From contig JBEKTQ010000002.1 of NCBI GenBank assembly GCA_049515895.1, positions 123,975-187,974 on the forward strand: a stretch of 64,000 nt of DNA, in the 5' to 3' direction. A program made the translations under genes and the position numbers. Below are positions 1 to 60,241 of this stretch, piece by piece (position 1 is the stretch's first letter; each line of letters begins with the position of its first letter). The notes below the pieces were generated by a model, which ran no database searches, had not been told where the DNA came from, and worked only from the letters and a program-made list of their open reading frames with translations. This DNA comes from Candidatus Bathyarchaeia archaeon (GTDB taxonomy: Archaea; Thermoproteota; Bathyarchaeia; Bathyarchaeales; Bathycorpusculaceae).

Positions 1-110
1 GGAGCTCTGTCTTTGAAGGCTGCTTTTCGGCTAAGTGGCTCGTTAAGTTCGACTTTTTTTACTCCGTTAGCTCGGTAGAAGGTTTTAACGGTTTTTATGC
101 AGCGCTTCAT
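1..110 (-). pseudogene. possible tyrosine-integrase fragment running off the window edge
   Basis: Minus strand reads MKRCIKTVKTFYRANGVKKVELNEPLSRKAAFKDRA, which resembles the middle region of archaeal XerC-like integrases (from memory). An in-frame stop lies just upstream. Confidence 0.35.
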
Positions 111-279
111 TCCGCACGCGTGCGCTCTGGCAATTGATCAAGCGCTGAGAATCTTTATAAGATTGATACAACTCCTAGAAAAGTCGGGAAGAAGTACCTA
201 ACTTCATTCTTGCTTATTCTCGAAATAACAACTATAGTCTAGTGTATTTCTTCACCCAAGAAAAGGAGAAAAAAGAAAA

Positions 280-3048: not shown

Positions 3049-3316
3049 ACGGCAAAACCAAACAAAAACATCAACTTCCCCTTTTTTAGTCCTTCAAAAA
3101 TAATGGAGAGAAAATGGGGCTGAATAGGCTCTGGTTAAATCTAACAATCAAAGGCAAAAGCTGCAGTTGAACAATTTGCATTTAATCTTTTCTTCTTAAA
3201 ATTCGGGTCCAGAGCCCCAGCAAACCCATTTTTACTTAATTGAAGATCTTTTTAATTAGCATAATTTTGGCAATTTTTTGAAATTAAAAATAGTTTTTAC
3301 ACAGTCTCAGGCAGGT

Positions 3317-4006
3317 TCAAGCCGCAAAGATTATCGGGTATATTTCTTTAGTGATGTATTCGGTGTATTTGTTTTTGTCTGCGGTGTTGAATATGGTGAC
3401 CGATGCGTCTCGGGTGATGCCAACGACATATCCAGTTTCTTTGGATTTGGCGACGATGTACCAGAGTTTGCCATGTTTAGTGTAGTCGTCGAAGAGCTGG
3501 GTGTTTGAAAGGTCTGGTCCGTACAGTGACAGTTTGTCCACGTTGGGTATGTCTACATCGTCAAAGAAGGTTATCTTTGTGCCTTCGGGGTTCTTGAGGT
3601 GGAACTCTTTTATGGTTTCAGGCGTGATGCAAGCTTCGACTATAATGCCGACTTTTTCAAAGAGGACTTCTCCGAGTTTGTTGGCGACGAAGTTGGCGAT
3701 GCGTTTCCTTTCGACCACCGTTAGAAATGTTGTACCCTGAATTTTGGAGAAACTGAACATGGCTTCGATAGTTTGAGGCAAGGGTGCTCGTGTCCCTCGG
3801 TGGAAAGCGTATGTTACGTAGTCATTCGAGTAGACGCCATTGAGCATGTTCGCTTTCTGCTGAAGACCTACTACTTCACTTATGAGCGTAAAATTATTGT
3901 TGCCTTCCTCAAATGGCGTTTCAACGTGGTAACCGTTAAGATTCGAGGCAATATCAGCTATCGACATAGGTTGGGAGACCGTAAAAATTTTCCCAGCAAC
4001 AACCAT
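3317..4006 (-). CDS. conserved archaeal hypothetical protein
   Basis: 229-aa ORF with protein-like composition, immediately downstream of tRNA-Val. Confidence 0.75.
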   Translation of the reverse strand: MVVAGKIFTVSQPMSIADIASNLNGYHVETPFEEGNNNFTLISEVVGLQQKANMLNGVYSNDYVTYAFHRGTRAPLPQTIEAMFSFSKIQGTTFLTVVERKRIANFVANKLGEVLFEKVGIIVEACITPETIKEFHLKNPEGTKITFFDDVDIPNVDKLSLYGPDLSNTQLFDDYTKHGKLWYIVAKSKETGYVVGITRDASVTIFNTADKNKYTEYITKEIYPIIFAA

Positions 4007-4076
4007 AACCGTTTCCCGCGAATATAATGGTAATTGCGGATGCTTAAATATTGTTTCGGCTTGAACCTATTGAGAG

Positions 4077-4151
4077 TGGGCCGAGCCGGACTTGAACCGG
4101 CGACCTTTGGCTCGTAAAGCCAACGTCCTAACCAAGCTAGACGACCGGCCC
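4077..4151 (-). tRNA. tRNA-Val(TAC)
   Basis: Reverse complement GGGCCGG...TTGGC-TT-TAC-GA-GCCAA...GGTTCAAGTCC...TCGGCCCA folds into a cloverleaf. Confidence 0.97.
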
Positions 4152-4243
4152 GCACAATTTGCTTATTCAAGGCTTGATTGAAGCTGTGTGTATTATGAAA
4201 CTAAGTTGGTTCCATATTAGAATTTTCGTTGGGCTAAAGCCAA

Positions 4244-5173
4244 CTACGCTTTAGATTTTGCTTTTGCAGTGTTGAACGTTACCATGAAGACGCCTATGAA
4301 GATCAGGATTGCGCCCGCGATGACTGAAGGGTAGAGGACTTCGTTGATAAACATCACGGCGAAAACCGCAGTTATTAAGGGCTCGGCGAACAGAAATGTG
4401 CTTGCTGTTGCTCCCGCTTTCTTGAGCACGTAGAACCAGATGAAGTACCCGAGCAGCGAGCAAGTTGAAGCCAGGTACAATATACTTAACCAATCGTTGA
4501 GGGTCATGCTAAAGAGCTGCATGAAGGAGCCTTCAGCAAGCGAAAACGGCATTAGGCATGCTCCTCCAAGCAGGCTGACGTAGGCGACCACGAGGAAGGC
4601 ATCGTATTTCTGCATGATTTTTTGCCCCAGCAAACTGTAGGTCGCCCACATGATGGGAGTTGAAAGCAAAATCAAGGTGCCGATTAAGAAGTTCATGCTT
4701 CCCTCAAGATTTAGGAGGTCAGCTAAGACAACGAGCAATGTGCCAGCGGCAGCAATTGCGATGCCGATGATCTGCTTTTTTCTCAACTGGTCGCCGAACA
4801 GCCTAGCCGAGAAAATAGTGATCAATATGGGCGACAGAAGGCAAACCATAATTGCGGCTATTGAGGCTCCAGCGAGCTGAATCCCCGTGTACTGTACGGT
4901 GAAAAAAAACGTTACGCCGGTAAGCGCTAGCGCCAGCAAAACCAGCAGGTCTTTCCGCTCGATGCTTAGTCGGTAAGCTGGGCTCACCCGCTTCTTTAAA
5001 GCCAGCGCGACAAGGAAGAGTGCACCTGCTAAAAGAAACCGAAAAGTTGCTACTGCGATGGGCGTCAATCCATCATCCAGAAGCTGCTTGACAACCACGA
5101 AGGAGCTTCCCCAGAAAATAATCAGCAAAACCATTAAGAAAGCCTGAAAAGGACTGATTGAACGGGAAGCCAT
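4244..5173 (-). CDS. DMT/EamA family transporter
   Basis: Ten hydrophobic segments, two EamA repeats (FWGSSF...RF; WATYS...EP). Confidence 0.92.
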   Translation of the reverse strand: MASRSISPFQAFLMVLLIIFWGSSFVVVKQLLDDGLTPIAVATFRFLLAGALFLVALALKKRVSPAYRLSIERKDLLVLLALALTGVTFFFTVQYTGIQLAGASIAAIMVCLLSPILITIFSARLFGDQLRKKQIIGIAIAAAGTLLVVLADLLNLEGSMNFLIGTLILLSTPIMWATYSLLGQKIMQKYDAFLVVAYVSLLGGACLMPFSLAEGSFMQLFSMTLNDWLSILYLASTCSLLGYFIWFYVLKKAGATASTFLFAEPLITAVFAVMFINEVLYPSVIAGAILIFIGVFMVTFNTAKAKSKA

Positions 5174-16628: not shown

Positions 16629-17945
16629 TTGTTAATGCTAACTATGGGTAATATAAGCAAGAGTTTCTCATTGCTTCTTATTCTTGTCTTAGCCGTGTCA
16701 AGTCTAACAATTGTAGCCTCTACTATGCCTATTGGATTAGGTCAAAGTGGCACAAACACAAGCACTGTAATTAGTTCAGACACGACTTGGACGCAAGCGA
16801 ATAGCCCCTACAACATTGAAGGAAATGTTCTGATAAATAATGGGACATTAACGCTGGCAACAGGAACCACATTAAATCTAAATGGCTACATGATAGTGAC
16901 TGGCTCACTAATTATTCAGCAAGGCGTTACAATAAATATACAGAACGCAAGTGGCTACATCCAAGTAGATGGTATTTTGCAGGCATTAGGAACAAACAGT
17001 TCTCCAATCCACATAATTGGCAGTGAAGCCACATTACCAATCATGTTCAACACTACTCCATACTATTCAACAATAACTTTTTCCCAAGAGAGCAGGGGTT
17101 GGAACGAACAAACGTTATCAGGGTCAATAATAGAGAACACAATTTTTAGTTCGACAACGTTAACTATTTCAAGCTCAGTAAAATTTACACAAGATTCTTT
17201 TGCAAATGCTTTGTCAATTGAAGGAGGAACACCAGTAATCACTGGTTGCACAATTGAATCGGGGTTAAGTATCTTAGGTGGAACACCAATCATATCGAAC
17301 AATCAAGTGATGGGAGGAATTACTCTTGAAGGTTCAAGTGCTGTCTTTTCTAATGGGCAAATTACCTATATCGATGATAATTCAATTTCTGGTCAAATAC
17401 TTTATCTTGAATCGCCACTCGCTTCTAACGTTGTGATTGAAAGAAACTTAGTAACGAATAGCAAAGATGCGGCAATTGATATCGCCTTTGCAAATAATGT
17501 TGGTTGCTCAATGATCATAAATAATAATACGATTACGAACAGCGCCGTTGGGATTCAGCTTCATTATGGCTATCCACAATTGATATCAAACAACAATATT
17601 TACGATAATACAGTTAATTTCAAAGTTGATAATAATCACTCATTTAATTGTACAAATAACTGGTGGGGAACGACAGACCAACAGGCAACAGGCAACTCAA
17701 TTTATGATTTTAAATATGATTTTACCTTGGGCACAGTGAACTTTGTTCCTTTCTTGACAGCACCTAATCCAGAGGCAGTGCCTAATATTAATGCCTCAAT
17801 AACAATGCTTAATCCTTCTCCAACTCCTACCGTTCCAGAGTTTCCAACTTTGATAATTCTACCACTTGTTGCATTAGCAATACTGTTATCGATTGTATTT
17901 GTAAGAAAGAGAAATAGCGTAGACAGAATGCCAGTGATTGAATGA
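16629..17945 (+). CDS. secreted parallel beta-helix protein with PEF-CTERM sorting signal
   Basis: WTQANSPY, Asn-ladder repeats, NNWWGT, C-terminal VPEF + TM + RKR. Confidence 0.85.
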   Translation: MLMLTMGNISKSFSLLLILVLAVSSLTIVASTMPIGLGQSGTNTSTVISSDTTWTQANSPYNIEGNVLINNGTLTLATGTTLNLNGYMIVTGSLIIQQGVTINIQNASGYIQVDGILQALGTNSSPIHIIGSEATLPIMFNTTPYYSTITFSQESRGWNEQTLSGSIIENTIFSSTTLTISSSVKFTQDSFANALSIEGGTPVITGCTIESGLSILGGTPIISNNQVMGGITLEGSSAVFSNGQITYIDDNSISGQILYLESPLASNVVIERNLVTNSKDAAIDIAFANNVGCSMIINNNTITNSAVGIQLHYGYPQLISNNNIYDNTVNFKVDNNHSFNCTNNWWGTTDQQATGNSIYDFKYDFTLGTVNFVPFLTAPNPEAVPNINASITMLNPSPTPTVPEFPTLIILPLVALAILLSIVFVRKRNSVDRMPVIE

Positions 17946-18613
17946 ATAAAAAAATGGTGGCTATTGCATTAATACCAATAGCTATAGGATTTTTGCTGAT
18001 TATTATTTCAGTATTAGAATTACAGAACACAACAAACCAAGTTGCAAATGCCTATTGGATCCATTTTTACAAATCTATTGTTCCAATTATTTCTATCTGT
18101 CTTGTAGCAGGGGCATTTCTTGTGGTAATTGGAGGAGTGTACCTAAAAAATATTAGAAACAAGTGGAGCTACTCCTCAATAACTGTGGGGTTCAGCTTAA
18201 TCGCCGTTGAAGCAGCTGAACTGGCTATTACTCTAAAAGGAACACAAGGACCAAGCGGAATAGGTTGGGGTGATTTCCAACAGCATTGGGCACTTAGCTT
18301 CTTTTCAGTCTTGATGGCAGCGTGCTTTCTTATAGTTCTTGGTATAATCCTCGGGTTAAAGACAAAAAACAAACTTGGTTACGTTATGGTAACTGGCGGG
18401 TTTGCCGTAATGCTTGTTGGAGCATCCGTGTTAGCTGCGAATTTGGCGACGAGCCTTGATTATTATCCGCCGAATTATTATTTCAGTCTTCAGGCAGCTT
18501 GGAACACAACTATCTCTTATTTTCTGATAATCGGCGCAATAATAGTAGCTACCGGAACTGGATATTTGATGTGGGCAAGAAATAGAAATCGGCGTAATGC
18601 CACTAAACAGTGA
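17942..18613 (+). CDS. multi-pass membrane protein
   Basis: About six hydrophobic segments; ATGA overlap with the previous gene. Confidence 0.75.
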   Translation: MNKKMVAIALIPIAIGFLLIIISVLELQNTTNQVANAYWIHFYKSIVPIISICLVAGAFLVVIGGVYLKNIRNKWSYSSITVGFSLIAVEAAELAITLKGTQGPSGIGWGDFQQHWALSFFSVLMAACFLIVLGIILGLKTKNKLGYVMVTGGFAVMLVGASVLAANLATSLDYYPPNYYFSLQAAWNTTISYFLIIGAIIVATGTGYLMWARNRNRRNATKQ

Positions 18614-19462: not shown

Positions 19463-20147
19463 AATTCACACTTAATTATCCCGAAAAGGTATGGTTGTTT
19501 CAAACTGAAACATTTTGCGTTATCAATTATAGGCTCTCTTTTATCCCTGCTTCATTTATAGCTGATCTACTACGTTCCACGACAAAACGGATTTTATTTA
19601 CCACAATATAATTCTGCTTTGCCTATTATACTCGTGCCACTGCTCCTTTCTCTCTTAAGCATAATTCTTTTTGCAGCCTCCAAAAATCAATTTTCTTAAG
19701 CAAGAAGCAGTTGCAAATATTATTTTAGTGTTAGGAATAATAATGTCTATTTTCTCCGGCATTCCTTAAGTTATTTTTGCTATATGGGTTTCCGAGTAAT
19801 TGAAGAATTTGCAGTAGCTGAAATGTTTGCAGTAAAAGCCGTTGCAAAGGATTCTTTCATTCTTCAGATTTACACGTGTAATTAGCTTGGACTTTTCTTC
19901 AAAGAATCCATCCGTTGAATGATGTGTCAGCAAAGTCCTAAAAGAATTGTACCAAAGCTTTTGTTCGAAGGATCCTGACCAGATTTCTATGTTTTTCAAT
20001 TCTGCCGAGCCGAAATTCAAAACCATCTCGAACGTCGGTTTCAACAATTTATCGCTATCTGTGTAGCCCGCAACGTAGGAAAATCTTAAAACCACATAAA
20101 ACAAGAAATTAATCCTTGAAATGAAAAGGCGCGGCAGATAGGGAACA

Positions 20148-30790: not shown

Positions 30791-30892
30791 AGCGGGGTGG
30801 GGTAGCCAGGATTAACCCGCTGGGCTCATAACGGCGCATTGTCGCTGTGAGACACCCAGAGATCACTAGTTCAAATCTAGTCCCCGCTACCA
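30791..30892 (+). tRNA. initiator tRNA-Met(CAT) with 23-nt canonical intron (30831-30853), CCA encoded
   Basis: A1:T72 acceptor pair, CTGGG/CCCAG anticodon stem with three G-C pairs, bulge-helix-bulge CTCA/TGAG flanked by TAA and ACA bulges. Confidence 0.95.
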
Positions 30893-49910: not shown

Positions 49911-50010
49911 GTCTAAATTCGTCGTAAAAAGTCTACTAAAGTCTACTAACGTCAATAGAAGTCAATAGTCGTCTGCCAAAGTCAATAGTCGTCTAAAAAA
50001 GTCAACACTG
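49911..50010. repeat. 10-bp-period tandem array (GTC core, 10 units)
   Basis: GTC begins at exactly 49911, 49921, ... 50001, with divergent spacers. Confidence 0.88.
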
Positions 50011-50220
50011 ATGAGGGATTAACGACATAAGACGATGGAAAATTTTCAAATTCTCCCTAAATCTACTTAAATCTCCTCATAGCGTAACATGGAAAAGAAT
50101 TGAGGCAGCGGCCACATTTTAAGCGATAAAACTTCACCTTGAATTATGACGTCAGAATCTTCGGGAAAGTCTAATGCGTGCTGAGGAATCTATATTTAGA
50201 CTTGTTTTAGAGATTATTCG

Positions 50221-50613
50221 CTAATGACTCTGGCAGTTTTCCTTAACTCTAAACTTGACCATTTCCTTTATCAAGTCAAGCGGAACCGGTTTGTCCAATG
50301 GAAATTTGACGGTGCCCTTGACTTTGCTTACTTCATAGCCTGACAGTTTCTCTTTGAATTCCTCGATGGCCGACTCCCGCGGATAGAAACCTATGTGATT
50401 CTTGAATGCTCCAAACCAGACCAAGTTGCCATTCAGTTTGAACGCTGGCATGTTATAACTAATTGCTTCTTCTGCTTTGGGTGCGGCGTCCTTGATTGCT
50501 TGCCTTATTTGTTCTAAAACAGTTTGAACGCTCTTGGGAAAAGAAGAAATGTAATCGTCGACTGTCTCAAAATGCTTCTGCATCACTAACAAACTCCATA
50601 AGAAAATATCCAT
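50221..50613 (-). CDS. DUF1801/YdhG-like protein
   Basis: TVDDYI, EEAISYNMPAF, F.AFKNHIGFYP, KGTV.FP. Confidence 0.9.
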   Translation of the reverse strand: MDIFLWSLLVMQKHFETVDDYISSFPKSVQTVLEQIRQAIKDAAPKAEEAISYNMPAFKLNGNLVWFGAFKNHIGFYPRESAIEEFKEKLSGYEVSKVKGTVKFPLDKPVPLDLIKEMVKFRVKENCQSH

Positions 50614-50733
50614 TCTAATTATTTCGCTCAGATTTTAAATACTTATCTTGAAGCTGAGTAATGAAGTTCCCAGTCAAAGCGGTGTTTTGTATGATTAAGC
50701 CAGTTTTAGCGATGCTTATGAATTGACCCTTGG

Positions 50734-50765
50734 GGGATTTGGACCCGCGACCATTACCTTACCAA
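50734..50765 (-). repeat. partial att copy of tRNA-Thr 3' half
   Basis: GGGATTTGGACCCGCGACCATTACCTTACCAA is identical to the tRNA-Thr sequence at 57463-57494. Confidence 0.9.
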
Positions 50766-51019
50766 TGGATAAGAAAATTGGCCAAACCTCAGATAATTAA
50801 GAAAGCTCCCAATGCCATAGTTAATATTCCAGTGAAAATCACTAGCGGATTGTTAGAAACCAAGAAAAGTTGCGACCTCACTTAACGAAAGATATATTGT
50901 AACTTGTAAAATAATATTCTATACAAAGCAGTTTACATAGGCCATTCAGGCGCCATAACCGCGTGCGGTGGAGGATCAATTGAAAGTGACAATAACGGTC
51001 AATAAGTTGTAGTGATAGG

Positions 51020-51529
51020 TCACTTTGGGAGAACTGTCACGAATCCGCCCATAAATCCGATTTGATCAGGTTGTCCATCGCTGCCAGTTGTCATTGCCCA
51101 ACCCCCTGAATCGGTGTCACATGGTACAGTGCACCACCAACGGTAAACGCCAGATTGTGTTTCTGTAAACTGAAAGTGTGAAACCGCCGGAACCCCATTT
51201 ATCTGGCATCCCGGTATCTGGAAATCCACGTTCAAAGTTGGGCTCGTAAAGCTATGTTCCCCATTATCGTAGTTCACGACTGTGAGATTGACTACTTGAC
51301 CTGCATATACAGTAAAGTTACATGGAACAAAAGTATCATGAGTCTGGTTATCTGGACCAAGAGTCAAGTCACTTTGAACCAACAAGGTTATGTCTGCGTA
51401 TTTTGCAGTGTTAGAAACTGTGGTTGTGGCAGGTTTCAAATCGTACCCTATTATCGCTCCCAAAACAATAGCAGCGAGAACAACTACTATAAAACCGGCT
51501 ATTACCACACTCGTTAAGTCATTGCTCAT
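51020..51529 (-). CDS. membrane-anchored cupredoxin-domain protein
   Basis: N-terminal TM helix, PCNFTV..GQ.V.L.V.N.D..HSF, GVY.WWC..PC...M. Confidence 0.8.
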   Translation of the reverse strand: MSNDLTSVVIAGFIVVVLAAIVLGAIIGYDLKPATTTVSNTAKYADITLLVQSDLTLGPDNQTHDTFVPCNFTVYAGQVVNLTVVNYDNGEHSFTSPTLNVDFQIPGCQINGVPAVSHFQFTETQSGVYRWWCTVPCDTDSGGWAMTTGSDGQPDQIGFMGGFVTVLPK

Positions 51530-51825
51530 TAATACTATCTGCTAAAATCATATTGTATGTTAAGTTAATGACTGATCCATCTTAAAGGTCTTATGAATTT
51601 TCCAGTTTCTTGTCACACCACAAGCAACTTGCAGTTCATAATAAAAAAAGCCATCTGACCTCGGGTTGTAACATCCGAACAGCCACACAGCTTTAAGAAG
51701 TAACACCCTACATGAAATTGTTCTTAGTGTTTTCGAGTTATAGGCTTGACAATTAAGCGTGCACCAAAAAAAGAAGGAAAGCAAGAAAAATGTTTTGGGT
51801 GAGTGAATGAGTCCTAGATGAAAAG

Positions 51826-52773
51826 ATGTTGCTTTTGGTCACTCCAATTCTAACTCTATTTCTAAATTGGAGCCTTCGGCGGGATTTGGACCCGCGACCA
51901 TTACCTTACCAAGAAGCCCGATTCATTGAACCAATGAGTTTTCGAGCTTTTGATTGGGTTGAATTCAAAAAATTCGTCCAGGGAAAATACCGCAAAACCA
52001 CCGCTAAAAGAGTCATGTGCTACGCTAACCGCTACTACCATGTACTTGAATCTGGCAACATCGGGCAACTCAATGCTGTCCCATCAACCGTCAGATCGGA
52101 AGTAATCAAAAGTCTCATCGTAATCTCGAAGTATATCGGGTGCTACGAGCAATTCAAGGCTTCTCTGAAAAGCTACGGAATCAAGGCTAGCAGGCCAGAC
52201 GCGCTTGCCGCCTTCGTCAGAATATACAACAATAACAATAGCAATTTGGACGAGTGGTTCGCCAAAGTCAAGCCAGTACTCACGCCACAGGAGAATTTGC
52301 TGCTGAAATTCTTGCGCCTGACAGGGCTACGATGCAGCGAGGGCATTGAAAGCTTCAACCTGATAATCGAGCTTTCGGAGAAGGGAAGATTATATGAGTA
52401 CCTCAGCGCTGAAACTGGGATCCTAGAGCATTTTCGTTACAAAGACAAATTCCTGCGCGGCACAAAGAATGCCTTCATCAGTATAGTGCCTGAAAGCTTG
52501 ATTGGCGAAATTACGGGGAGCCGGCCTGTAACTTATGCGGCCATCACAAAGAAACTTCAAAGACGAAAGATTCCGACTCGAATCAGCGAGCTACGGGATT
52601 ACTATGGCACCTTCATGATCAGGCATGGGCTCGTTGCACAGGAGGCAGACTTGCTTTGCGGGAGGATTCCGCCCAGTATATTTGTCAGACATTACTTTTC
52701 TCCAGCGATAAAGGAACTTAGAGAACGAACGTTGAAGGCTCTTGAAGAAATAAGCGTCAAAGGCCTTCAATAA
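51826..52773 (+). CDS. SSV1-like tyrosine integrase, C-terminal (intC) part
   Basis: TGLRCSE (catalytic R), GTK, ELR, LCGR, RHYF (catalytic Y). The att sequence encodes WSLRRDLDPRPLPYQ in frame. Confidence 0.88.
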   Translation: MLLLVTPILTLFLNWSLRRDLDPRPLPYQEARFIEPMSFRAFDWVEFKKFVQGKYRKTTAKRVMCYANRYYHVLESGNIGQLNAVPSTVRSEVIKSLIVISKYIGCYEQFKASLKSYGIKASRPDALAAFVRIYNNNNSNLDEWFAKVKPVLTPQENLLLKFLRLTGLRCSEGIESFNLIIELSEKGRLYEYLSAETGILEHFRYKDKFLRGTKNAFISIVPESLIGEITGSRPVTYAAITKKLQRRKIPTRISELRDYYGTFMIRHGLVAQEADLLCGRIPPSIFVRHYFSPAIKELRERTLKALEEISVKGLQ

Positions 52774-52897
52774 ATTGGGGGGTATAGAGGGAGGTCGAAA
52801 GGTCTTCAGTAAATTATCTAATCATCAGAACCTATAAAAATAAACAAAATAATTCGAAGTAGTCCCTTCCTATACCTCCCAAATCGTAGAAGGCCTT
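52760..52897 (+). repeat. family-A ~135-bp repeat, copy 1
   Basis: AAGGCCTTC...GAAGGCCTT terminal inverted repeat, inner GGGTATAGAGGGA / TCCCTTCCTATACC arms, core ATCATCAGAAC at 52821. Confidence 0.88.
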
Positions 52898-53203
52898 AGT
52901 CCCATTGCGGCAGCCAAGAACGGAACGGGGCAGATCCAGACTTACATACGCCGCGACTGCTGCCACCGATTTTCGTGACGGGGCAGGGAGAGATTTGGTC
53001 CTCATCCCATTGTCTGATCCTTTTATGGCGCAAAGTGCGCGACTATTTTTATTTAACAGCCTGCATTAGAGCATGTTGCCTGTGAAGAAAAACACGTTAG
53101 TCGGAGAAAGGATTAGTTGTCCTATTGATGATGTCGGGAACAAATTCTGAGGCACCTGAACCGGGCAAATGCAGACTTACATATGCCGCGACTGCGGCCT
53201 GCT

Positions 53204-53232
53204 GGAGAAGTCACCTGCATTTCCCTTTATTT
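53204..53232 (-). repeat. family-B element, truncated copy
   Basis: Reverse complement AAATAAAGGGAAATGCAGGTGACTTCTCC matches the copies at 61992 and 62782. Confidence 0.7.
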
Positions 53233-53263
53233 AGGCAGCGCATGAAAAGCAAGATCCTGAGTC

Positions 53264-54181
53264 CTAAATTATTCTGGCGCCCGTCAGGTTTCCCCATTGT
53301 AAATCAGCCGGCAAAGAGCGGCGATAGTTAATTTCTACAGAAAAGAAAAGCAGTGGAAAACTCTCGGAGAACACTTTGTAGTTTAATTTGCATAATCCCT
53401 CAATCTTTAGAATTGGTTGTCGCGGAATAAGATCCAACGCACTATGCAAGTATACCCCCTCTTCGTCAGCATGTATGGAAAAAATATCAACGGCTCCGAA
53501 ATCTCTTGGCAGAATTGTTCCTTGATATCCTTCTTTCTGACCCGCCCACTTCAGATAGCTTCTATCACTGCATTCAATCTTAGTTCCATCAGGGTATTCA
53601 ATGGTTTCCAGAATGCACACACTGTTGACCGCAGCAGCATCAGGTCTTCGATTTTCGATCTTCGCGTGCCAAATAAACTCCATATGTCGTCCCGTGTGAT
53701 CTCCATAAAGCATGGGTTTGGGAGTCACTTTGATTTCTGCAAGAACAAGGTTTCTAGAATAATCCTTAGTCCATTTTCGCCCTCTAACCGAACTCTCAAT
53801 TTTCTTGAGTAAATCCTCTTCGTCTTCAAAAATCTCGGGATTCGCCTGGACATACTTAAGAAAGCCTTCCAGCGGAGCCCCCTTTTCTTGAAATGCAATG
53901 ATCTCTTTGAACCCAAGATGATGCGCAAGAGCCAATTCTTGATGTGTAAACAATGAACAAGGCAATGTGTTTCCATTCTCTCTACGAAAATCAACGAACA
54001 GGTAATAGTCAGAAGATCTCAGTTCGTCTGTTATTTTCATGATGTCATTCAAACCTTGAATCTTAAAAGCCAAATAGTACTCAAGATCGAACTTCTCCTT
54101 CAACAGTTTACCTATTTTTTCCGCGATATTTTTCTCTCTTGGCGGTCTTTGACCGCAACTTATGAAAACTCTTCCAACCAT
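53264..54181 (-). CDS. TIR/DUF4062-like nucleotide-processing domain protein with beta-rich C-terminal domain
   Basis: RVFISCG...SDYYLF...S.FTHQELALA resembles the TIR/NDT flavodoxin-like fold with a catalytic Glu. Confidence 0.7.
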   Translation of the reverse strand: MVGRVFISCGQRPPREKNIAEKIGKLLKEKFDLEYYLAFKIQGLNDIMKITDELRSSDYYLFVDFRRENGNTLPCSLFTHQELALAHHLGFKEIIAFQEKGAPLEGFLKYVQANPEIFEDEEDLLKKIESSVRGRKWTKDYSRNLVLAEIKVTPKPMLYGDHTGRHMEFIWHAKIENRRPDAAAVNSVCILETIEYPDGTKIECSDRSYLKWAGQKEGYQGTILPRDFGAVDIFSIHADEEGVYLHSALDLIPRQPILKIEGLCKLNYKVFSESFPLLFFSVEINYRRSLPADLQWGNLTGARII

Positions 54182-54277
54182 AGGTTTTCATCTTCCTAAG
54201 TTGACTCGTGCTATTTCTCTTTGACTCTTATATTCTATAGGACTTGATTGAGGATAAAAAGTGCTCCTCAAAAAAAA

Positions 54278-54336
54278 GCGGAGCAGAATTTGAACCCATC
54301 CCCCGAGGAGATTTCACTTGTACAGTCCCTCTTTTT
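54278..54336 (-). repeat. family-B element
   Basis: Reverse complement AAAAAGAGGGACTGTACAAGTGAAATCTCCTCGGGGGATGGGTTCAAATTCTGCTCCGC. Confidence 0.65.
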
Positions 54337-54477
54337 CTTTACAGACAAAGAAAGAGGAAGTTTTGTTTTCAGGATCAGAAGTTTACTCAGAAAGACCAAA
54401 TAACTTGCTAAGTTCCTCCTGTTTCTCTTTTAACCTTATTTCATACCGTTCTTTATTCTGAACTTTTAGGGCAACTT

Positions 54478-55530
54478 CTAATTTGATGAGCCTGCCTCCT
54501 CTCCAAATTTGTTCTTAATTATTATAATTCTGTCTTCAAATTCAGTCGAAGCGCATTTCCCCAGATTAATAAGGGCTTTTTCAGGCTCTCCGTTTAACAC
54601 AATCAAATTTGATTTTTTGCATCTACAGAGATTCTCAATGATTGCAGCATTTATCGGGTAGTCTCTGAAAGAATATCCTATGACAATTAGTTTTTCCCAT
54701 TCTTGCGCTTTAAAAATGCTGTAGAAATTATGATACGGGTATTTTAGCATAGATTTTTCTTGAGTGGGGTAAATCATCATATTCTCTTGTATCATTGTTT
54801 TTGTTGAAAGTTTTTCAGGAGCTTCTAAAGTTTTGAAAATTGAATTTTCAAATTTGTATTCATAAAGAGATCCATGCAACTTAATTAGCCATCTGTTGTG
54901 TGCTTTTTCAGGAAAAATTGAGAAGTCCAAAATGCTTTGAGCAGGATCTTCCGATTGCCTAAAGCCATCAGTAAAACTTCGCTTTTTTGCTCGATGATAA
55001 ATCTCCAGAATATGATCATAATTTGTAGTTACAACCGTGTTCCCTACATCAACCTCAGTCTGGAAAGTATTACCCGCTTCTACCAAGGAGCTCATTTGGG
55101 GCTCGCGGTTCGGCACATATCGCACGTCTCTGAATTGTGATTCTTTTGCTATTCTAAAAAGTCTGTCATACACATTTACTATCTTAGTTTCATAAAATTT
55201 CTTTAGTGTGCATTCCTTCCAGACAAATTTTCGTAGCGACTGCAGCATTTCATTCAAGTCTTTTTTATAATAATCCTTTAGGTCCTTACCAACGTAGGCA
55301 GTAAATGGCCCACTTTGTTTCACTGAATCCTCAAGATTTGTTAGCCCTTCTACTATGCTATAAGCGGCTTCAAAATCGAGCGTCATTCCGTACTTAGTTA
55401 AGCCTAACTCAAGCTGTTTCGCCAATTCGCCATGACCATTTTGTTCAAACATTTTTACTATGTCTTGGCCCATTTCTTTTAATGTCTTGATTCCAAAAGG
55501 TCTTGATGCCCCTGCCCCTAAGAAAATCAT
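54478..55530 (-). CDS. SIR2-family (SIR2_2) protein
   Basis: FLGAGAS, VTTNYD, KLHGS, IGYSFRD motifs. The C-terminus probably extended to 54383 before a 1-nt deletion. Confidence 0.9.
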   Translation of the reverse strand: MIFLGAGASRPFGIKTLKEMGQDIVKMFEQNGHGELAKQLELGLTKYGMTLDFEAAYSIVEGLTNLEDSVKQSGPFTAYVGKDLKDYYKKDLNEMLQSLRKFVWKECTLKKFYETKIVNVYDRLFRIAKESQFRDVRYVPNREPQMSSLVEAGNTFQTEVDVGNTVVTTNYDHILEIYHRAKKRSFTDGFRQSEDPAQSILDFSIFPEKAHNRWLIKLHGSLYEYKFENSIFKTLEAPEKLSTKTMIQENMMIYPTQEKSMLKYPYHNFYSIFKAQEWEKLIVIGYSFRDYPINAAIIENLCRCKKSNLIVLNGEPEKALINLGKCASTEFEDRIIIIKNKFGEEAGSSN

Positions 55531-55877
55531 TTCATTCGCCTCCGTTAAATTGGCGTAATTGACTAATAATTCTTACCGAGCTGGTTCGACTGTCTTAAGG
55601 ATCATTCCCGCTGCGGATTTCATCGTGCGAACCCTTGGGAGACCGACGACAACAACCCCCGAAGTGATCCGCAGGAAATTTTTTTCTAATCCTGAAGATT
55701 TCATCTGCACAATTTTTTTTACTATTCTTGAAATTAAGCAATGCAATTTTGAAAGACTATTTTTGAAACCAGGTTAAGATTTTGGGTCGCTTTCTTAGCT
55801 TTTCTATTTAAGTGAGAAATCTTATATTTCCGCTACAACAATGAACGATACAGCGAGCAGATAAAAGATGGCGGACG

Positions 55878-56000
55878 AAATCTGGGGGGTATAGAGGAAG
55901 AAAGGCTTGTCTGATTTTACCTTATCATCAGAACATATAAAATACAATAAATAATTTTGAGGGTGTCTTATCCTATGGCAGCTAATCCGTGGAAGGCCTT
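55878..56000 (+). repeat. family-A repeat, copy 2 (left outer arm lost)
   Basis: GGGGGGTATAGAGGAAG...ATCATCAGAACATATAAAA (55924)...CTTATCCTAT...GGAAGGCCTT. Confidence 0.85.
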
Positions 56001-56034
56001 ATCTAAAGGCAGACGATAAGCCTGTCGAAGAACA

Positions 56035-56640
56035 ATGGCTGTCTTGTACCCAATTCAAGCCGACGTAGAGCAAACTTACGCCGGCTGGTCTGAGGAGTCA
56101 CCTCCCCTTTACAGGTACTATCTGTTCCGAGCCTGGGACGTGTCTAAGCCGTTGTTCGCTTTTATCGGAATGAATCCTTCCAAAGCCGATGAGCATTTCG
56201 ATGATCCGACGGTTCGCCGATGCATCAATTTTGCAAGGCGCGAAGGAGCTGGCCGATTCATCATGCTCAACGTGTATGGGTATCGAAGTACCGATGCTTC
56301 CGCCATTCGCAAGGTTGCAGACCCGAACGGACCCGAAAATGACTACTGGCTCAGAACTCATGTCAAAGAAGCCGACGTTGTAGTTGCGGCATGGGGCAGA
56401 AACGTTACCGACAGAGGCGGGAAAGTTCTGAAGATGATCAAAGGCTTGAATACTGTACATTGCTTGGGCATTAATGCAGACGGCAGCCCGAAGCATCCGT
56501 TATATCTGAAAGCCGACACCGCATTGCAGGTTTTACAAGAGAAATGGGGCACCAAGGCCCTCCAAAAACTTACCCCCCCTAGAGGGAAAGAGGTCATGAG
56601 TTTTATCTCATCATCAGAACATATAAAAAATATAAAATAA
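56035..56640 (+). CDS. DUF1643 domain protein
   Basis: YRY.L.R.W, FIGMNPSKAD, DDPTVRRC, VVAAWG, HPLY. The last ~28 codons are supplied by repeat copy 3. Confidence 0.88.
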   Translation: MAVLYPIQADVEQTYAGWSEESPPLYRYYLFRAWDVSKPLFAFIGMNPSKADEHFDDPTVRRCINFARREGAGRFIMLNVYGYRSTDASAIRKVADPNGPENDYWLRTHVKEADVVVAAWGRNVTDRGGKVLKMIKGLNTVHCLGINADGSPKHPLYLKADTALQVLQEKWGTKALQKLTPPRGKEVMSFISSSEHIKNIK

Positions 56641-56687
56641 TTTTTGATTTGATTTATCCTATCCCTGCCCATTTCTCGAAAGGCCTT
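56554..56687 (+). repeat. family-A repeat, copy 3
   Basis: AAGGCCCTCC...TAGAGGGAAAG...ATCATCAGAACATATAAAA (56610)...TTATCCTAT...GAAAGGCCTT. Confidence 0.85.
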
Positions 56688-56839
56688 TGCCCGACACAGT
56701 GTACGTTGTATAAGGTTAGCGTCGTAGATTGGCACTTTTCTAAAAAGGGACTTTCAGTTAGATTGCCCATAATCCTCATGCGAGGAGTTCCAGGCTAACT
56801 GGCTTCCCTGGCCTTTTACCTAGGCTTCTTATAAGATAG

Positions 56840-56952
56840 TTATTGGGATTTGAAGAGGGACGGCTTCATTGTTTTGGCCGCTTTGGATAAGTCGCCTTTT
56901 TGCGTCCGAATCTTTCTAGTTTTTCTGAGATGTCAATGTGGATGCGGCCCAA
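56840..56952 (-). pseudogene. degenerate ribbon-helix-helix protein
   Basis: (TTG)GRIHIDISEKLERFGRK/frameshift/GDLSKAAK resembles small archaeal RHH repressors. Confidence 0.45.
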
Positions 56953-57160
56953 TTTTAGTCACTTGTGTTTGCTGGTTACATTTTTTTGAAGGAAGTGAGC
57001 AGCCAATTCTTGTATTCAGTTTTTGTTTGTTTCATGTTTTGTCCCTTCGATTTCACTTATTCACACAAATGTATATATGCATACACACTTATAAGTGTAT
57101 GTGTTTAAGCGCGTAAAATACATGGGAATATTGCAGCGAACCAGAGGCATACGACCGTTC

Positions 57161-57294
57161 AAAGGTCTTCCAAAATCTTACCCCCATAGGAAGGAAGGCT
57201 TTTCTGGTTTAAGCTAATCATCAGAACACATAAGAATCAAATAAATAAATTCAAACTTATCTTCTCTCTACCCTCCAGTTTTCGGAAGACCTTT
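57161..57294 (+). repeat. family-A repeat, copy 4
   Basis: Perfect 11-bp terminal inverted repeat AAAGGTCTTCC / GGAAGACCTTT, core ATCATCAGAAC at 57217. Confidence 0.88.
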
Positions 57295-57335
57295 GCCACC
57301 GCATCAATAGCAAGACACGAGACCTCGGGGAAGAA

Positions 57336-57516
57336 ATGCGCCTGCTGGCAAATGCTGGATTAATAGCGGAAAACTGTAATCAAGTTACAGAATTCAGTAA
57401 CCAAAAAAGAGGCGCAAATCAAGTCTTTTCAATGAATCAGGGGGAAGAGTGGAGCCTTCGGCGGGATTTGGACCCGCGACCATTACCTTACCAAGGTAAC
57501 GCCCCACCGGGCTAGG
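57336..57516 (+). CDS. integrase N-terminal (intN) fragment
   Basis: ATG 57336 opens MRLLANAG...MNQGEEWSLRRDLDPRPLPYQ, in the same frame across att as intC. It stops inside the antisense tRNA. Confidence 0.65.
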
Positions 57517-57526
57517 CTACGAAGGC
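57450..57526 (-). tRNA. tRNA-Thr(GGT), CCA encoded; integration target
   Basis: Reverse complement GCCTTCG...TTACC-TT-GGT-AA-GGTAA...CGAAGGC-T-CCA. Confidence 0.96.
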
Positions 57527-57687
57527 GCGTGATGCCGTTACCGTGAAAGAACTGCTTCTTGGCAATAAAATGCTTACGGTTAATCAACTCCACAAATGGC
57601 AACAGTCCACACGATTCAGGTAGCCTAACGGGAAAAACTTCATATTAATTAGGTACAACAGAGTTTACCTCGTCTTGCATCACAGTT

Positions 57688-57772
57688 GCAGGGGTCTCCA
57701 AGTCTGGTCAAAGGAGTAGGGCTTAGGACCCTATCGCGCAGGCGTTCGTGGGTTCAAATCCCACCCCCTGCA
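57688..57772 (+). tRNA. tRNA-Leu(TAG)
   Basis: GCAGGGG acceptor stem, TAGGG-CT-TAG-GA-CCCTA, long variable arm, GGTTCAAATCC. Confidence 0.96.
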
Positions 57773-58119
57773 CTTTTTTGATTATTTTCTTGCTAATTTC
57801 TTGCTTTTTCGCAAAGAAAGAGCAAGGTATATTCACTTTAGTTGGGGTTCAAACCTCCAAGTCAATAAGGCACTTCGAATTCTGCAGGGTTCAAATCCCG
57901 CGGGTTCGCCATTGCTTAGACATTTACTCATTATTGTTTGATTGGGAACTGAATACTCAGTGGAGTATAGCTGTGCCTCGGTCTTTGGTTAAGAATAAAT
58001 TTACCGCCTTTGAGTCTGGCCTTATACTCGGTAAGAGGAGGTACAGAATTGAGCTGTTATTTCAGCTTGACTCGTTTCAAGCCTCCTTTTACATTTTTTC
58101 ATAGATGTTGATGTTTTCA

Positions 58120-58890
58120 CTAAATCATAATTGGCAGTATGCCAGGGATGAAAATTACTAATGTTCCATAGATTATCAAAATTATGGCTGCGATTTTCGC
58201 GATCTGCTTGCCAACATAGAGCGACTTTTCAGCAAAGATCAGTAGTGTGATAGCAGCCATAGCTGCCACGTTCATGACACCAAGTGGAAAGAGGATTATG
58301 AAGAGCAGCCAGCAGCAACCGAGACAGTAAAGGCTGTGTTCGAGTCCCATGCGAAATGAGCCCCAATAGCCTTCGCGCCAGGAGTGGAGAATAAAGTTCA
58401 CAGGTGTCCTGCACTTGGAAAGACAGGAGTTTTTGAGTGGTGAGAGTTGGTAGAGACCTGCCAGAATTATAACGCCTCCTCCTAAGCGAGCGGCGTTATC
58501 CATGAGCCACATGTACTGCTTTCCCAACTCCTGCGCCACCAATGCAGCTCCATAAGCAGGTACACCGACTATCGTCCAGACGAGAAGGTAAGAGCTGACA
58601 AAAATCCAGGTTGGCACGAAGGGGTGTCCGTGTTCACGCTTAGCAGCGTAAACCTTTGCGAATATCAAGATCATCGGTGCTGCAGTGGGGAACATAACCG
58701 CTACCATCATAACCATCCATATAGCAATAAACAGAGGAGCATCCATCCCCATCGTGACGCCCATTGCTTGCTTGTCTGACATAGTAGACTGCCAGACAAG
58801 AATCGCCCATGAGACAGCAGCTAAAATGAGCAGCAAAGCCAGTATCAGATTTCTCTCATTAGGCATGGGGTAAGTTTTTTTCGCTGCCAT
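58120..58890 (-). CDS. DUF2182 metal-binding integral membrane protein
   Basis: WMVMMVAVMFP, YQLSPLK..CL.KCR.P, YCLGCCW.L motifs. Confidence 0.9.
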   Translation of the reverse strand: MAAKKTYPMPNERNLILALLLILAAVSWAILVWQSTMSDKQAMGVTMGMDAPLFIAIWMVMMVAVMFPTAAPMILIFAKVYAAKREHGHPFVPTWIFVSSYLLVWTIVGVPAYGAALVAQELGKQYMWLMDNAARLGGGVIILAGLYQLSPLKNSCLSKCRTPVNFILHSWREGYWGSFRMGLEHSLYCLGCCWLLFIILFPLGVMNVAAMAAITLLIFAEKSLYVGKQIAKIAAIILIIYGTLVIFIPGILPIMI

Positions 58891-59024
58891 TGTTGTATGT
58901 TCCTTGTTAGGTGCTGCTAAAACAAACGTTCTGCGATTCTTAAGACCGCTGTGGAAAAATTCGCGGTGTTATCATTGCGCCGATAAATTACATTGTCCCT
59001 AAGCACGCCCGATGACGACCTTTA

Positions 59025-59639
59025 CTACGGAGCGTAAGCGAAACGAGAGTAGAAACCGTTCTTGCCAGTATTATCCCACTTTAGTCCGTGATCATGGTAT
59101 GTATTCTTGGTTGAACGTGAAATCACGGGATCGAAACCTGCACCAGCATAAAGCGAAGGATTTGTCACTGTTGCATCGCGCTTGGAATCGCCTCCCGTGA
59201 CACCTTCGACTTCAAGTTCCAAAACTTCTGGAGTGCTCATCCAGCGCCGCTTTCCTTCGAGCCCGAATTGAATTGGAGTAGTGCGAACGCCCATTATTTC
59301 GCCGATAAGGGCCGCAACGTTTTCTAAGAAGCCGCCAGCCTGCCCCGAGAAAATCTTGCTTAGCGCTTCTGCTTGCTCTTTAGTGGCGCGGTAGTCTATG
59401 TAGAGCGCTGCCCGCCATTTGGGTCCAGTGACCATATTTCCGGGTGTGTGGAAGATGCCCGCTACATTAAGCCCATCCAATTGGGTTGGGCCGTAGTGAC
59501 CATTTTGAATGTGCCAGCCGATGGTTAGTTTGCAGTCGCCCTCAGATGGATCGCCCAGAAAGATACATGGACAGATGGATTGACAGTTACATCCTTCGAA
59601 ATAGTCGCCTTCGACTTTCCAAGAAATTGCTTGGTTTAT
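59025..59639 (-). CDS. DUF1326 domain protein (probable ATA start)
   Basis: The upstream in-frame extension encodes WKVEGDYFEGCNCQSICPC...GDC, the family N-terminus. It is typically paired with DUF2182. Confidence 0.85.
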   Translation of the reverse strand: MNQAISWKVEGDYFEGCNCQSICPCIFLGDPSEGDCKLTIGWHIQNGHYGPTQLDGLNVAGIFHTPGNMVTGPKWRAALYIDYRATKEQAEALSKIFSGQAGGFLENVAALIGEIMGVRTTPIQFGLEGKRRWMSTPEVLELEVEGVTGGDSKRDATVTNPSLYAGAGFDPVISRSTKNTYHDHGLKWDNTGKNGFYSRFAYAP

Positions 59640-60241
59640 TGCTTATTTCTCCTTATTGATTCAGAATAAATTCTACTATCGATACTATTTCGTTTTCCAT
59701 ATCTTCATCCAGTTTATTAATGATAAGTTTTTCAAAATTCATCTACAAATACGTTTAACTTGAATTACTAATAAAGTTTTGTGGAAACAAGTATCTGCTG
59801 AAGGCTGTTTGGTTTCTAGTTTTATGTAATTGTTGTGCCTTCATTCAGTTGAAGATGATAACTTGGTCTTCTATTTTTGGCAGAGTTGTTTTGGGTTGCT
59901 CTTTTGAATTTTGGCTTGAATCATTTGCAGGTTAGGTAAGAGTCATGGGCCATTAAAAAATGGATTTGCCTTCCTCAGAGAATGCGTTGTCAGAAGTTTT
60001 GCGGCTTGAACCCGTTCAGGTATGCAACTCGGCGGGTTTGCCTTCAAAAAGATTTGGTGAACCTCTATCGTAGTTAAAGTGATTAGGTTTTGCGCGTTAA
60101 ATTTAGACGTGGGTTTAGATCTACCCCCCTGCACCATTATAAGCAAAACTATAGGGGGTGCCACCTGATGCAATAAAATACAGCGTGTGGGTTTAACAAA
60201 TTATAAATACAAATTACTGACATATTTAAAATCCCGAGGTT

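Follow-up and report, generated by a model that had tools for sequence, protein, structure and literature searches.

Integrons, the textbook example of a device that stockpiles and reshuffles genes, depend on a single recombinase family, IntI. Their attC sites carry conserved terminal R''/L'' and L'/R' boxes, the crossover taking place in the R box. Interspersed repeats of another kind, such as Correia elements, repetitive extragenic palindromes and bacterial interspersed mosaic elements (REP/BIME), and ERIC sequences or miniature inverted-repeat transposable elements (MITEs), measure about 130 nucleotides (nt), have inverted arms and an asymmetric promoter-like centre, and lie between converging genes. 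Here we describe a 64,000-nt stretch of the genome of a Candidatus Bathyarchaeia archaeon (contig JBEKTQ010000002.1, positions 123,975 to 187,974; the whole stretch is called the window), in which a 5.6-kb element integrated in a tRNA-Thr(GGT) gene holds four repeats of a family that we set beside these systems. The repeats look like the joints of a gene-shuffling system that lacks a published description; none was found in a literature search that left most subscription journals and supplements outside its range. We give an even chance to the reading that the element is a modular integrative one with these ~132-nt repeats as its joints, its modules being exchanged by recombination inside the repeats.

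The element docks in the tRNA gene by means of an SSV-type, or 'suicidal', integrase, the gene of which is split into the parts intC and intN. The integrase parts, the target gene and the attachment (att) sites are the following.

51826-52773, + strand: intC, the C-terminal catalytic part of the split SSV-type tyrosine integrase (315 amino acids, aa).
57336-57515, + strand: intN, the N-terminal integrase part (59 aa), which reads through attR into the tRNA gene.
57450-57526, - strand: tRNA-Thr(GGT) gene, the integration target (ARAGORN; Rfam tRNA, 62 bits).
51868-51913: attL, inside the intC frame, a 46-bp direct repeat of the tRNA-Thr 3' part, 100% identical to 57450-57495.
57450-57495: attR, within the tRNA-Thr 3' part.

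The features of an SSV-type element are all present: att lies inside the integrase open reading frame (ORF), the two integrase parts flank the element, and the target is the 3' part of a tRNA gene. Since the 46-bp att repeat is found inside both the intC and the intN ORFs, it bears the signature of the SSV type, in which integration divides the gene of the integrase; the 15 residues encoded by att are common to both halves, residues 15-29 of intC being equal to residues 39-53 of intN. intC matched the Pfam family PF16795, Archaeal phage integrase (E 1.3e-7, 32.1 bits, for a cut-off of 27), as well as a PHROG integrase family (E 7.9e-10). No NCBIfam model matched intC at E 0.01 or better, and a PDB sequence search with the integrase returned 0 matches. 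An SSV-type split integrase in a tRNA-integrated island, divided into units by repeats, is also what the initial annotation of this DNA had described from the letters alone.

Between intC and intN there is nothing except the four repeats and three segments, so that the body of the element is filled by repeats and modules. This body is a chain of self-contained gene modules, with one repeat, always in the same orientation, between neighbours. In the excised circle, the integrase gene itself would sit between copy 4 and copy 1. The four copies are placed as follows.

52760-52897, + strand: repeat copy 1, integrase-proximal, the best-folding palindrome of the four (single-stranded DNA fold, z = -5.1).
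55867-56000, + strand: repeat copy 2, outer left arm lost, recognisable from about 55883.
56554-56687, + strand: repeat copy 3.
57162-57293, + strand: repeat copy 4; intN starts 43 nt downstream of it.

The four co-oriented nested palindromes that the initial annotation had reported were located, as imperfect palindromes of ~132 nt, all on the + strand. The core pattern ATCATCAGAACNYATAA occurs 4 times in the 64-kb window for 0.10 occurrences expected, and 0 of 100 shuffles reached 4. Its starts (52821, 55924, 56610 and 57217) lie 76-77 nt from the right end in all four copies, the constant distance that had been claimed. The conserved core is asymmetric (TTAnCTwATCATCAGAAC, then ATATAAAA), and the repeat ends read AAGGYCTTCC / GGAAGRCCTT. 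Further features reported beforehand were found: inverted outer arms, measured at 28 nt and 82% in copy 1 and at 19 nt and 89% in copy 4, the left one being lost in copy 2; the T/A change in copy 4; and two genes ending within a repeat, as the intC stop codon (52771-52773) lies 12-14 nt into copy 1 and that of the DUF1643 ORF (56638-56640) falls within copy 3.

The repeats were then followed with profile and covariance model searches of this 3.18-Mb genome and of relatives, all the genomes compared being metagenome bins. The genome holds 13 copies: the four in the window, five co-oriented ones on contig C23 (C23:13824-18387), and single copies on C23 (at 72.5 kb), C10, C24 and C40. Repeat-bearing genomes made up 14 of the 36 genomes of the genus in a first sample and 61 of 120 in a wider draw, and no repeats were found in 24 genomes from 11 sister families of the order. 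Across copies, the core positions are 85-97% conserved and the best-conserved block is the central one; outside the core, identity is about 57% (0.577 within genomes, 0.572 between genomes).

Single-strand folding was far above that of shuffled sequences for copy 1 only (z = -5.1), and not for copies 2-4; arm pairing in the 13 copies of this genome was not above that of shuffles, 162 of 500 being as high. In 85 copies, the covariation of the arms exceeded that of shuffles by all five measures used (0, 9, 0, 1 and 0 of 500 shuffles reached the observed value), in an alignment that was fitted to the covariance model and is thereby biased towards structure. Because the arms covary beyond shuffles in this set, their complementarity seems to be maintained. 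A folded single strand, an RNA hairpin and a symmetric site for a protein could each account for such covariation.

Two identities of the repeat as an RNA were considered and rejected. A C/D-box small RNA was set aside by eye, since the C-box-like word read on the reverse strand in the core lacks a conserved D box after it; the best Rfam match on a repeat was a plant microRNA family (23 bits, E 0.47), i.e. a chance match. The Rfam scan of positions 50000-60000 returned two tRNAs only. A 12-nt palindrome, CAATGTACATTG or near variants of it, lies about 10 nt past the right end of copy 3 (56697-56708). This type of palindrome accompanies 9 of 83 copies, at an offset of 82-95 nt from the core start (82-87 in eight of them), and stands upstream of 6 other copies. 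One of the small regulators encoded in the modules may use it as an operator.

The content of the three modules of the window is given below.

52898-55866: module 1, comprising a non-coding stretch, a pair of 42-nt direct repeats, a 305-aa ORF and a SIR2-like gene.
53264-54181, - strand: 305-aa ORF of module 1, no family assigned.
54478-55530, - strand: SIR2-like gene of module 1 (Pfam, PADLOC).
56001-56553: module 2, DUF1643 gene, with the ORF at 56035-56640 on the + strand running into copy 3 (Pfam PF07799, E 7.4e-42).
56688-57161, - strand: module 3 ('M2'), a degenerate small gene.

Among the gene labels proposed initially, SIR2 (Pfam and PADLOC) and DUF1643 (Pfam) were retained. The 305-aa ORF, labelled 'TIR-like', had no match in Pfam, PADLOC, PHROGs or NCBIfam. 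The label 'RHH remnant' (ribbon-helix-helix) found no backing either: an 88-aa ORF on the + strand (56850-57116) and the ORFs of the homologous segment on C23 (91 and 73 aa) were without Pfam match, and the degenerate frame on the - strand was read by eye only. The modules that were scanned encode mostly small regulators (winged helix-turn-helix, AsnC, Alba), DUF proteins or nothing recognisable, and SIR2 is the sole defence-like module among them; the 'stockpiling of defence cassettes' put forward at the outset is accordingly too narrow a description.

In the 366-nt non-coding stretch that follows copy 1, the two 42-nt direct repeats (52923-52964 and 53158-53199) are 88% identical. Between them, at 53077-53154, lies a weak Rfam match to the C/D-box family snoU61 (28.8 bits, for a gathering score of 55). 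This stretch with its repeat pair may be a small RNA or a regulatory site.

Comparison of arrays indicated that the modules are shuffled. Module 3, together with both of its flanking repeats, recurs in this genome at C23:17638-18389 (module at 17725-18255), with 77% identity over 761 nt, and it is present in at least 3 other genomes besides this one. When the inter-repeat segments were clustered, the following module orders were obtained, in which M1 is a loose single-linkage cluster to be read with care.

G000, C23 (this genome): M4-M2-M5-M1-M8.
G016: M1-M8-M1-M5-M4.
G002: M1-M2-M6-x-M4.
G020: M2-M1.

Every module has a constant orientation relative to the repeats in all arrays. In the genome G016, the same tRNA-Thr/tRNA-Leu locus contains an intC that is 90% identical (now with two stops), seven repeats and 0 modules in common with the window. 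As the modules of this locus differ entirely, the gene content between repeats is not fixed. The variation and shuffling of the content between copies that the initial annotation had anticipated was thus seen, and neither of the outcomes that spoke for other explanations, fixed gene content and target-site duplications, was encountered.

The polarity of the arrays was assessed in a first set of 97 copies from 15 genomes and in a set enlarged to 155 copies from 19 genomes by 20 regions from four more genomes; the added regions were picked for holding clusters, which biases cluster size, not orientation. In the first set, 66 of the 97 copies belonged to 22 clusters and 31 were solitary. Neighbours within 5 kb were co-oriented in a proportion of 43:1 with 97 copies and of 80:1 with 155 copies, and the spacing between repeats had a median of 675 nt (range 37-4261; 155 copies). 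The only oppositely oriented pair of neighbours (L055 3367-3438, - strand, and 4175-4243, + strand) consists of two left halves ending just past the core. The ORFs upstream of repeats were on the + strand in 38 cases and on the - strand in 18, and those downstream on the - strand in 40 cases and on the + strand in 20, so that the 3' ends of genes tend to converge on the repeat. A signal linked to transcription should follow the genes, and the repeats do not.

Further information came from the repeats themselves, which are mosaic. Pairs of copies sharing the upstream flank only (43 usable of 59) had an identity of 0.685 in the left part of the repeat and of 0.583 in the right part. Pairs sharing the downstream flank only (24 of 26) had an identity of 0.636 on the left and of 0.686 on the right, the background in unrelated pairs being 0.590 and 0.560, respectively. 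These values are evidence that each repeat is shared out between its neighbours, its left part moving with the module upstream and its right part with the one downstream. The clearest chimeras and half-copies switch at the conserved core. Thus, a copy in genome G088 is identical to one neighbour at 43 of 44 positions in columns 1-50, and to another at 57 of 58 positions in columns 75-132; the integrase-proximal copies of three genomes are alike at 46-48 of 50 positions on the left, whereas the right side has only 27-38 matches in 58. The core is also retained in half-copies, of which six left ones lying inside contigs stop at columns 63-74 and four right ones begin at columns 43-51. On contig C9 of genome G002, module M4 has a half-copy on either side, a right one that spans columns 51-132 and a left one that spans columns 1-69, both with the core. 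A single crossover point was rejected, as the positions were scattered in both change-point runs (with a fixed 92% model and with pair-specific rates). Most of the island is contained in three DNA metagenome runs, of which the assembled contigs were used, and no RNA run containing it was listed. Joints between repeats in these data were not counted as excision products: their sides are short (22-35 nt) and separated by foreign letters, and they were placed at 90% likeness, so that other copies of the repeat or other strains may be their source.

In the scheme that we propose, modules would be gained, lost and reordered through recombination within the repeats. A circular module with one repeat would recombine with a resident repeat, in a Campbell-type insertion that would necessarily leave two co-oriented hybrid repeats, and recombination between two repeats would excise the intervening segment. 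If the exchange were centred on the asymmetric core, a module would consequently take with it the right part of the repeat upstream of it and the left part of the one downstream.

Which enzyme might perform such exchanges? The most likely candidate is the integrase abutting the first repeat, which would then act on a second kind of site, an assignment that we consider tentative and rather doubtful. A repeat abuts the 3' end of this integrase gene, or of a remnant of it, at 8 loci in 7 genomes. Integrase homologues with an identity of at least 65% were found in 7 relatives, all of them repeat-bearing, and in none of the 22 repeat-less relatives of the first sample; distant homologues (identity of at most 57%), three of them in this genome, are without adjoining repeats. 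The clustering of copies beside this integrase subclade, which had been named as a check, was observed; since kin are not independent, the link between integrase and repeat is an association and not a test. According to PMC8371274, the cuts made by IntSSV1 border the anticodon loop. The anticodon stem-loop of att (TTACC-TTACCAA-GGTAA) resembles the core of the repeat (TTAyC-TTATCAT-CAGAA), this likeness ranking 2 among 42 tRNAs, a weak hint that the core might mimic the anticodon stem-loop of the att site. It is possible, though we would not call it probable, that the system is an archaeal counterpart of integrons built on another enzyme, with one SSV-type integrase serving two kinds of sites, the intragenic att and the core of the palindrome. 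The att site would dock the platform in the tRNA gene, and the core, which has the arrangement of an anticodon stem-loop (an arm on either side of a 7-nt overlap), would capture, excise and reorder modules, anti-virus genes included. Once the element is excised as a circle, its integrase gene would be flanked by two repeats like any other module.

Several observations count against module exchange by a dedicated recombination at the repeats, or against the participation of the integrase in it. An att site of its own is already available to the integrase; no close homologue of this enzyme is present in 6 of the 14 repeat-bearing relatives of the first sample, and the C23 array of this genome is without integrase. 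The likeness between core and att is weak: 158 of 3000 random windows (5%) scored equally, and with a longer profile of 26 columns the rank fell to 12 of 42. Among 38 pairs with at least 85% flank identity, the support intervals of the breakpoints fell in the core for about 12, in the arms for about 16 and at the outer edge for about 10, the last meaning that there is no extra homology inside the repeat; two 97%-identical pairs break at column 37-38 (first estimate). Because the breakpoints are scattered and many arrays have no integrase, site-specific and homology-guided exchange are inseparable in these data. Of the 97 copies of the first set, the 31 solitary ones include some among housekeeping genes (e.g. 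beside DnaJ), and the core resembles, by eye, the purine-rich B recognition element (BRE) and TTAAATA-type boxes upstream of the tRNA genes of this genome. Finally, chimeric joins made by the assembler at repeats may be present in metagenome bins.

The scatter of breakpoints over the whole repeat and its edges, and the many arrays without integrase, are what one would expect if the repeats were portable homology, i.e. conserved linkers between the transcription units of mobile elements, swapped by host recombination or by a low-specificity integrase of the pTN3 type, without dedicated crossover site. There is precedent for this in PMC8371274, according to which identical segments of only 104 bp suffice for recombination by the pTN3 integrase, and where module exchange among tandem integrated archaeal elements is ascribed to homologous recombination. 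Yet, with an identity of ~57% outside a core of ~25 nt, these repeats are poorly suited to exchange driven by homology; the breaks in the cleanest recent chimeras and in the half-copies fall at the core, and the conservation of the asymmetric core and of the palindromic arms is left without explanation. We consider this account rather unlikely. The resemblance of the core to BRE/TATA boxes, the convergence of gene 3' ends on the repeat and the covariation of the arms in 85 copies would all be in keeping with a module-borne punctuation of transcription, the core being a promoter and the arms and T-runs forming a two-way terminator or an RNA stabiliser between converging genes, with shuffling as a by-product. 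This would not account for an array orientation that is uniform (80:1) whichever way the genes face, and a same-strand ORF lies within 250 nt downstream of only 20 of 83 copies; such a role as the primary one appears improbable to us, though the core itself may be a promoter.

Less probable still is that the repeat is a non-autonomous transposon, MITE-like or of the palindrome-associated (PATE) kind, which accumulates in tolerant island DNA, recombination between copies doing the rest. Points in favour are its size, the presence of inverted arms at its termini (in copies 1 and 4, 19-28 nt at 82-89%), its intergenic place at gene ends and the solitary copies in chromosomal contexts. However, no target-site duplication was seen when the flanks of the 13 copies were read, the CA...TG or CC...GG next to the ends extending the palindrome instead; neighbouring copies are co-oriented 80:1, and 66 of 97 are clustered. 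As copies are no more alike within a genome (0.577) than between genomes (0.572), there have been no recent bursts. In addition, no longer element shares the arms, the arm motif occurring 13 times in the genome, 9 of them inside repeats; the Y1 transposase family PF01797, searched to the exclusion of other transposase families, gave 0 matches (a control was found in 6 of 14 genomes); and the two halves of the repeat differ in history. The solitary copy on C10 was used for a comparison of filled and empty sites, which was not clean, the flanks being mosaic and multi-copy across the genus. The adjoining 139-aa ORF (L010 7422-7841) is present in up to 3 copies per genome across the genus, and 274 nt on the other side (L010 8117-8390) recur at 97% on contig C11. 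Since its flanks recur elsewhere, this 'chromosomal' copy also stands at a mosaic junction. Taken with these arguments, the reading of the repeats as joints at which modules are exchanged is the one that we retain, at the strength given above.

The exact 20-base core word was found in 46 stretches of a public genome collection; 36 of these bear the title Bathyarchaeota or Bathyarchaeia, with peat and bog as their main sources. Of seven stretches with other titles that were tested with the covariance model, one ('uncultured archaeon') had full copies. Two short contigs (L100 and L116) of a bin titled Acidobacteriota carry the exact core word and are probably mis-binned. A viral carrier was also sought, and the one exact 20-mer match in IMG/VR (L137) was not confirmed by the covariance model, which leaves such a carrier without evidence. 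On C23, the array of five repeats is bracketed by 65-bp direct repeats (C23:13604-13668 and 19786-19849, i.e. L009 6605-6669 and 12787-12850). These start like the 3' end of a tRNA (acceptor and T arm), and ARAGORN calls no tRNA there.

Outside the element, the following features were noted.

50721-50766: third, degenerate copy of att and the tRNA-Thr 3' part (76% over 46 nt, 32 nt exact), 1.1 kb upstream of attL.
50767-51867: region between this copy and attL, with a 169-aa ORF having a sub-threshold cupredoxin-like match.
30791-30892, + strand: 102-nt tRNA-like gene with a four-base anticodon (ataa), according to ARAGORN.

From its sequence, the degenerate att copy was probably left by an earlier integration next to the element, on its upstream side, and the region between this copy and attL looks like a remnant of that event.

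If an integrase unrelated to IntI does exchange modules at these differently built sites, cassette platforms would have arisen more than once, and the modular evolution of archaeal mobile elements, so far put down to general recombination, would gain a concrete mechanism. It would also mean that SSV-type integrases, which have already been studied in vitro, have a second, testable substrate, and that the covariance model of the repeat is a simple marker for the flexible gene pool of abundant, uncultured peat archaea.

How does this locus compare with what has been described? With respect to Correia, REP/BIME and ERIC sequences and MITEs, the repeats differ by their low copy number (13), their clustering in integrated elements, their strict co-orientation, and by showing neither target-site duplication nor burst-like similarity. 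Nearest on the side of the integrase are the SSV-type ('suicidal', type I) elements and the 'gene capture' at tRNA genes, with which the element shares an att inside int, the intN/intC split and a degenerate third att; in contrast to these elements as described in the accessible part of PMC8371274, it is partitioned into exchangeable modules by an internal family of repeats. The tycheposon islands of Prochlorococcus (10.1101/2020.12.28.424599) are also elements with a tRNA-targeting tyrosine recombinase and cargo, forming variable islands with interchangeable modules. Their units are parted by partial tRNA copies left by serial integrations, whereas the joint is here a separate 132-nt palindrome; no tRNA fragments lie between the four repeats, and att copies are found only at 50721, 51868 and 57450.

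Integrons, including sedentary chromosomal ones, clusters of attC sites lacking an integrase (CALINs) and archaeal ones, have, according to 10.1101/2022.02.06.479319, a tyrosine recombinase gene beside the first site, as in the present element. Further likenesses are the co-oriented imperfect palindromes of similar length, the content between sites that is variable and reordered, and the many arrays without recombinase. The differences are several. The enzyme is here an SSV-type archaeal integrase, not IntI, and the repeat ends in AAGGYCTTCC / GGAAGRCCTT rather than in the R/L boxes of attC. The most conserved part and the informative breakpoints are central, not at an edge. Whereas integron cassettes are mostly single promoterless ORFs facing one way and read from Pc, the genes here face both ways, and the modules comprise one to several genes with their own regulatory regions, module 1 consisting of two genes on the - strand. 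Besides, the whole array is part of a mobile element for which a tRNA gene is the integration target. The initial proposal of a candidate integron-like system therefore holds for the outcome and fails for membership, be it by enzyme, boxes, facing of genes or position of the exchange. In its outcome, the element works like an integron, but it is not a member of the integron family.

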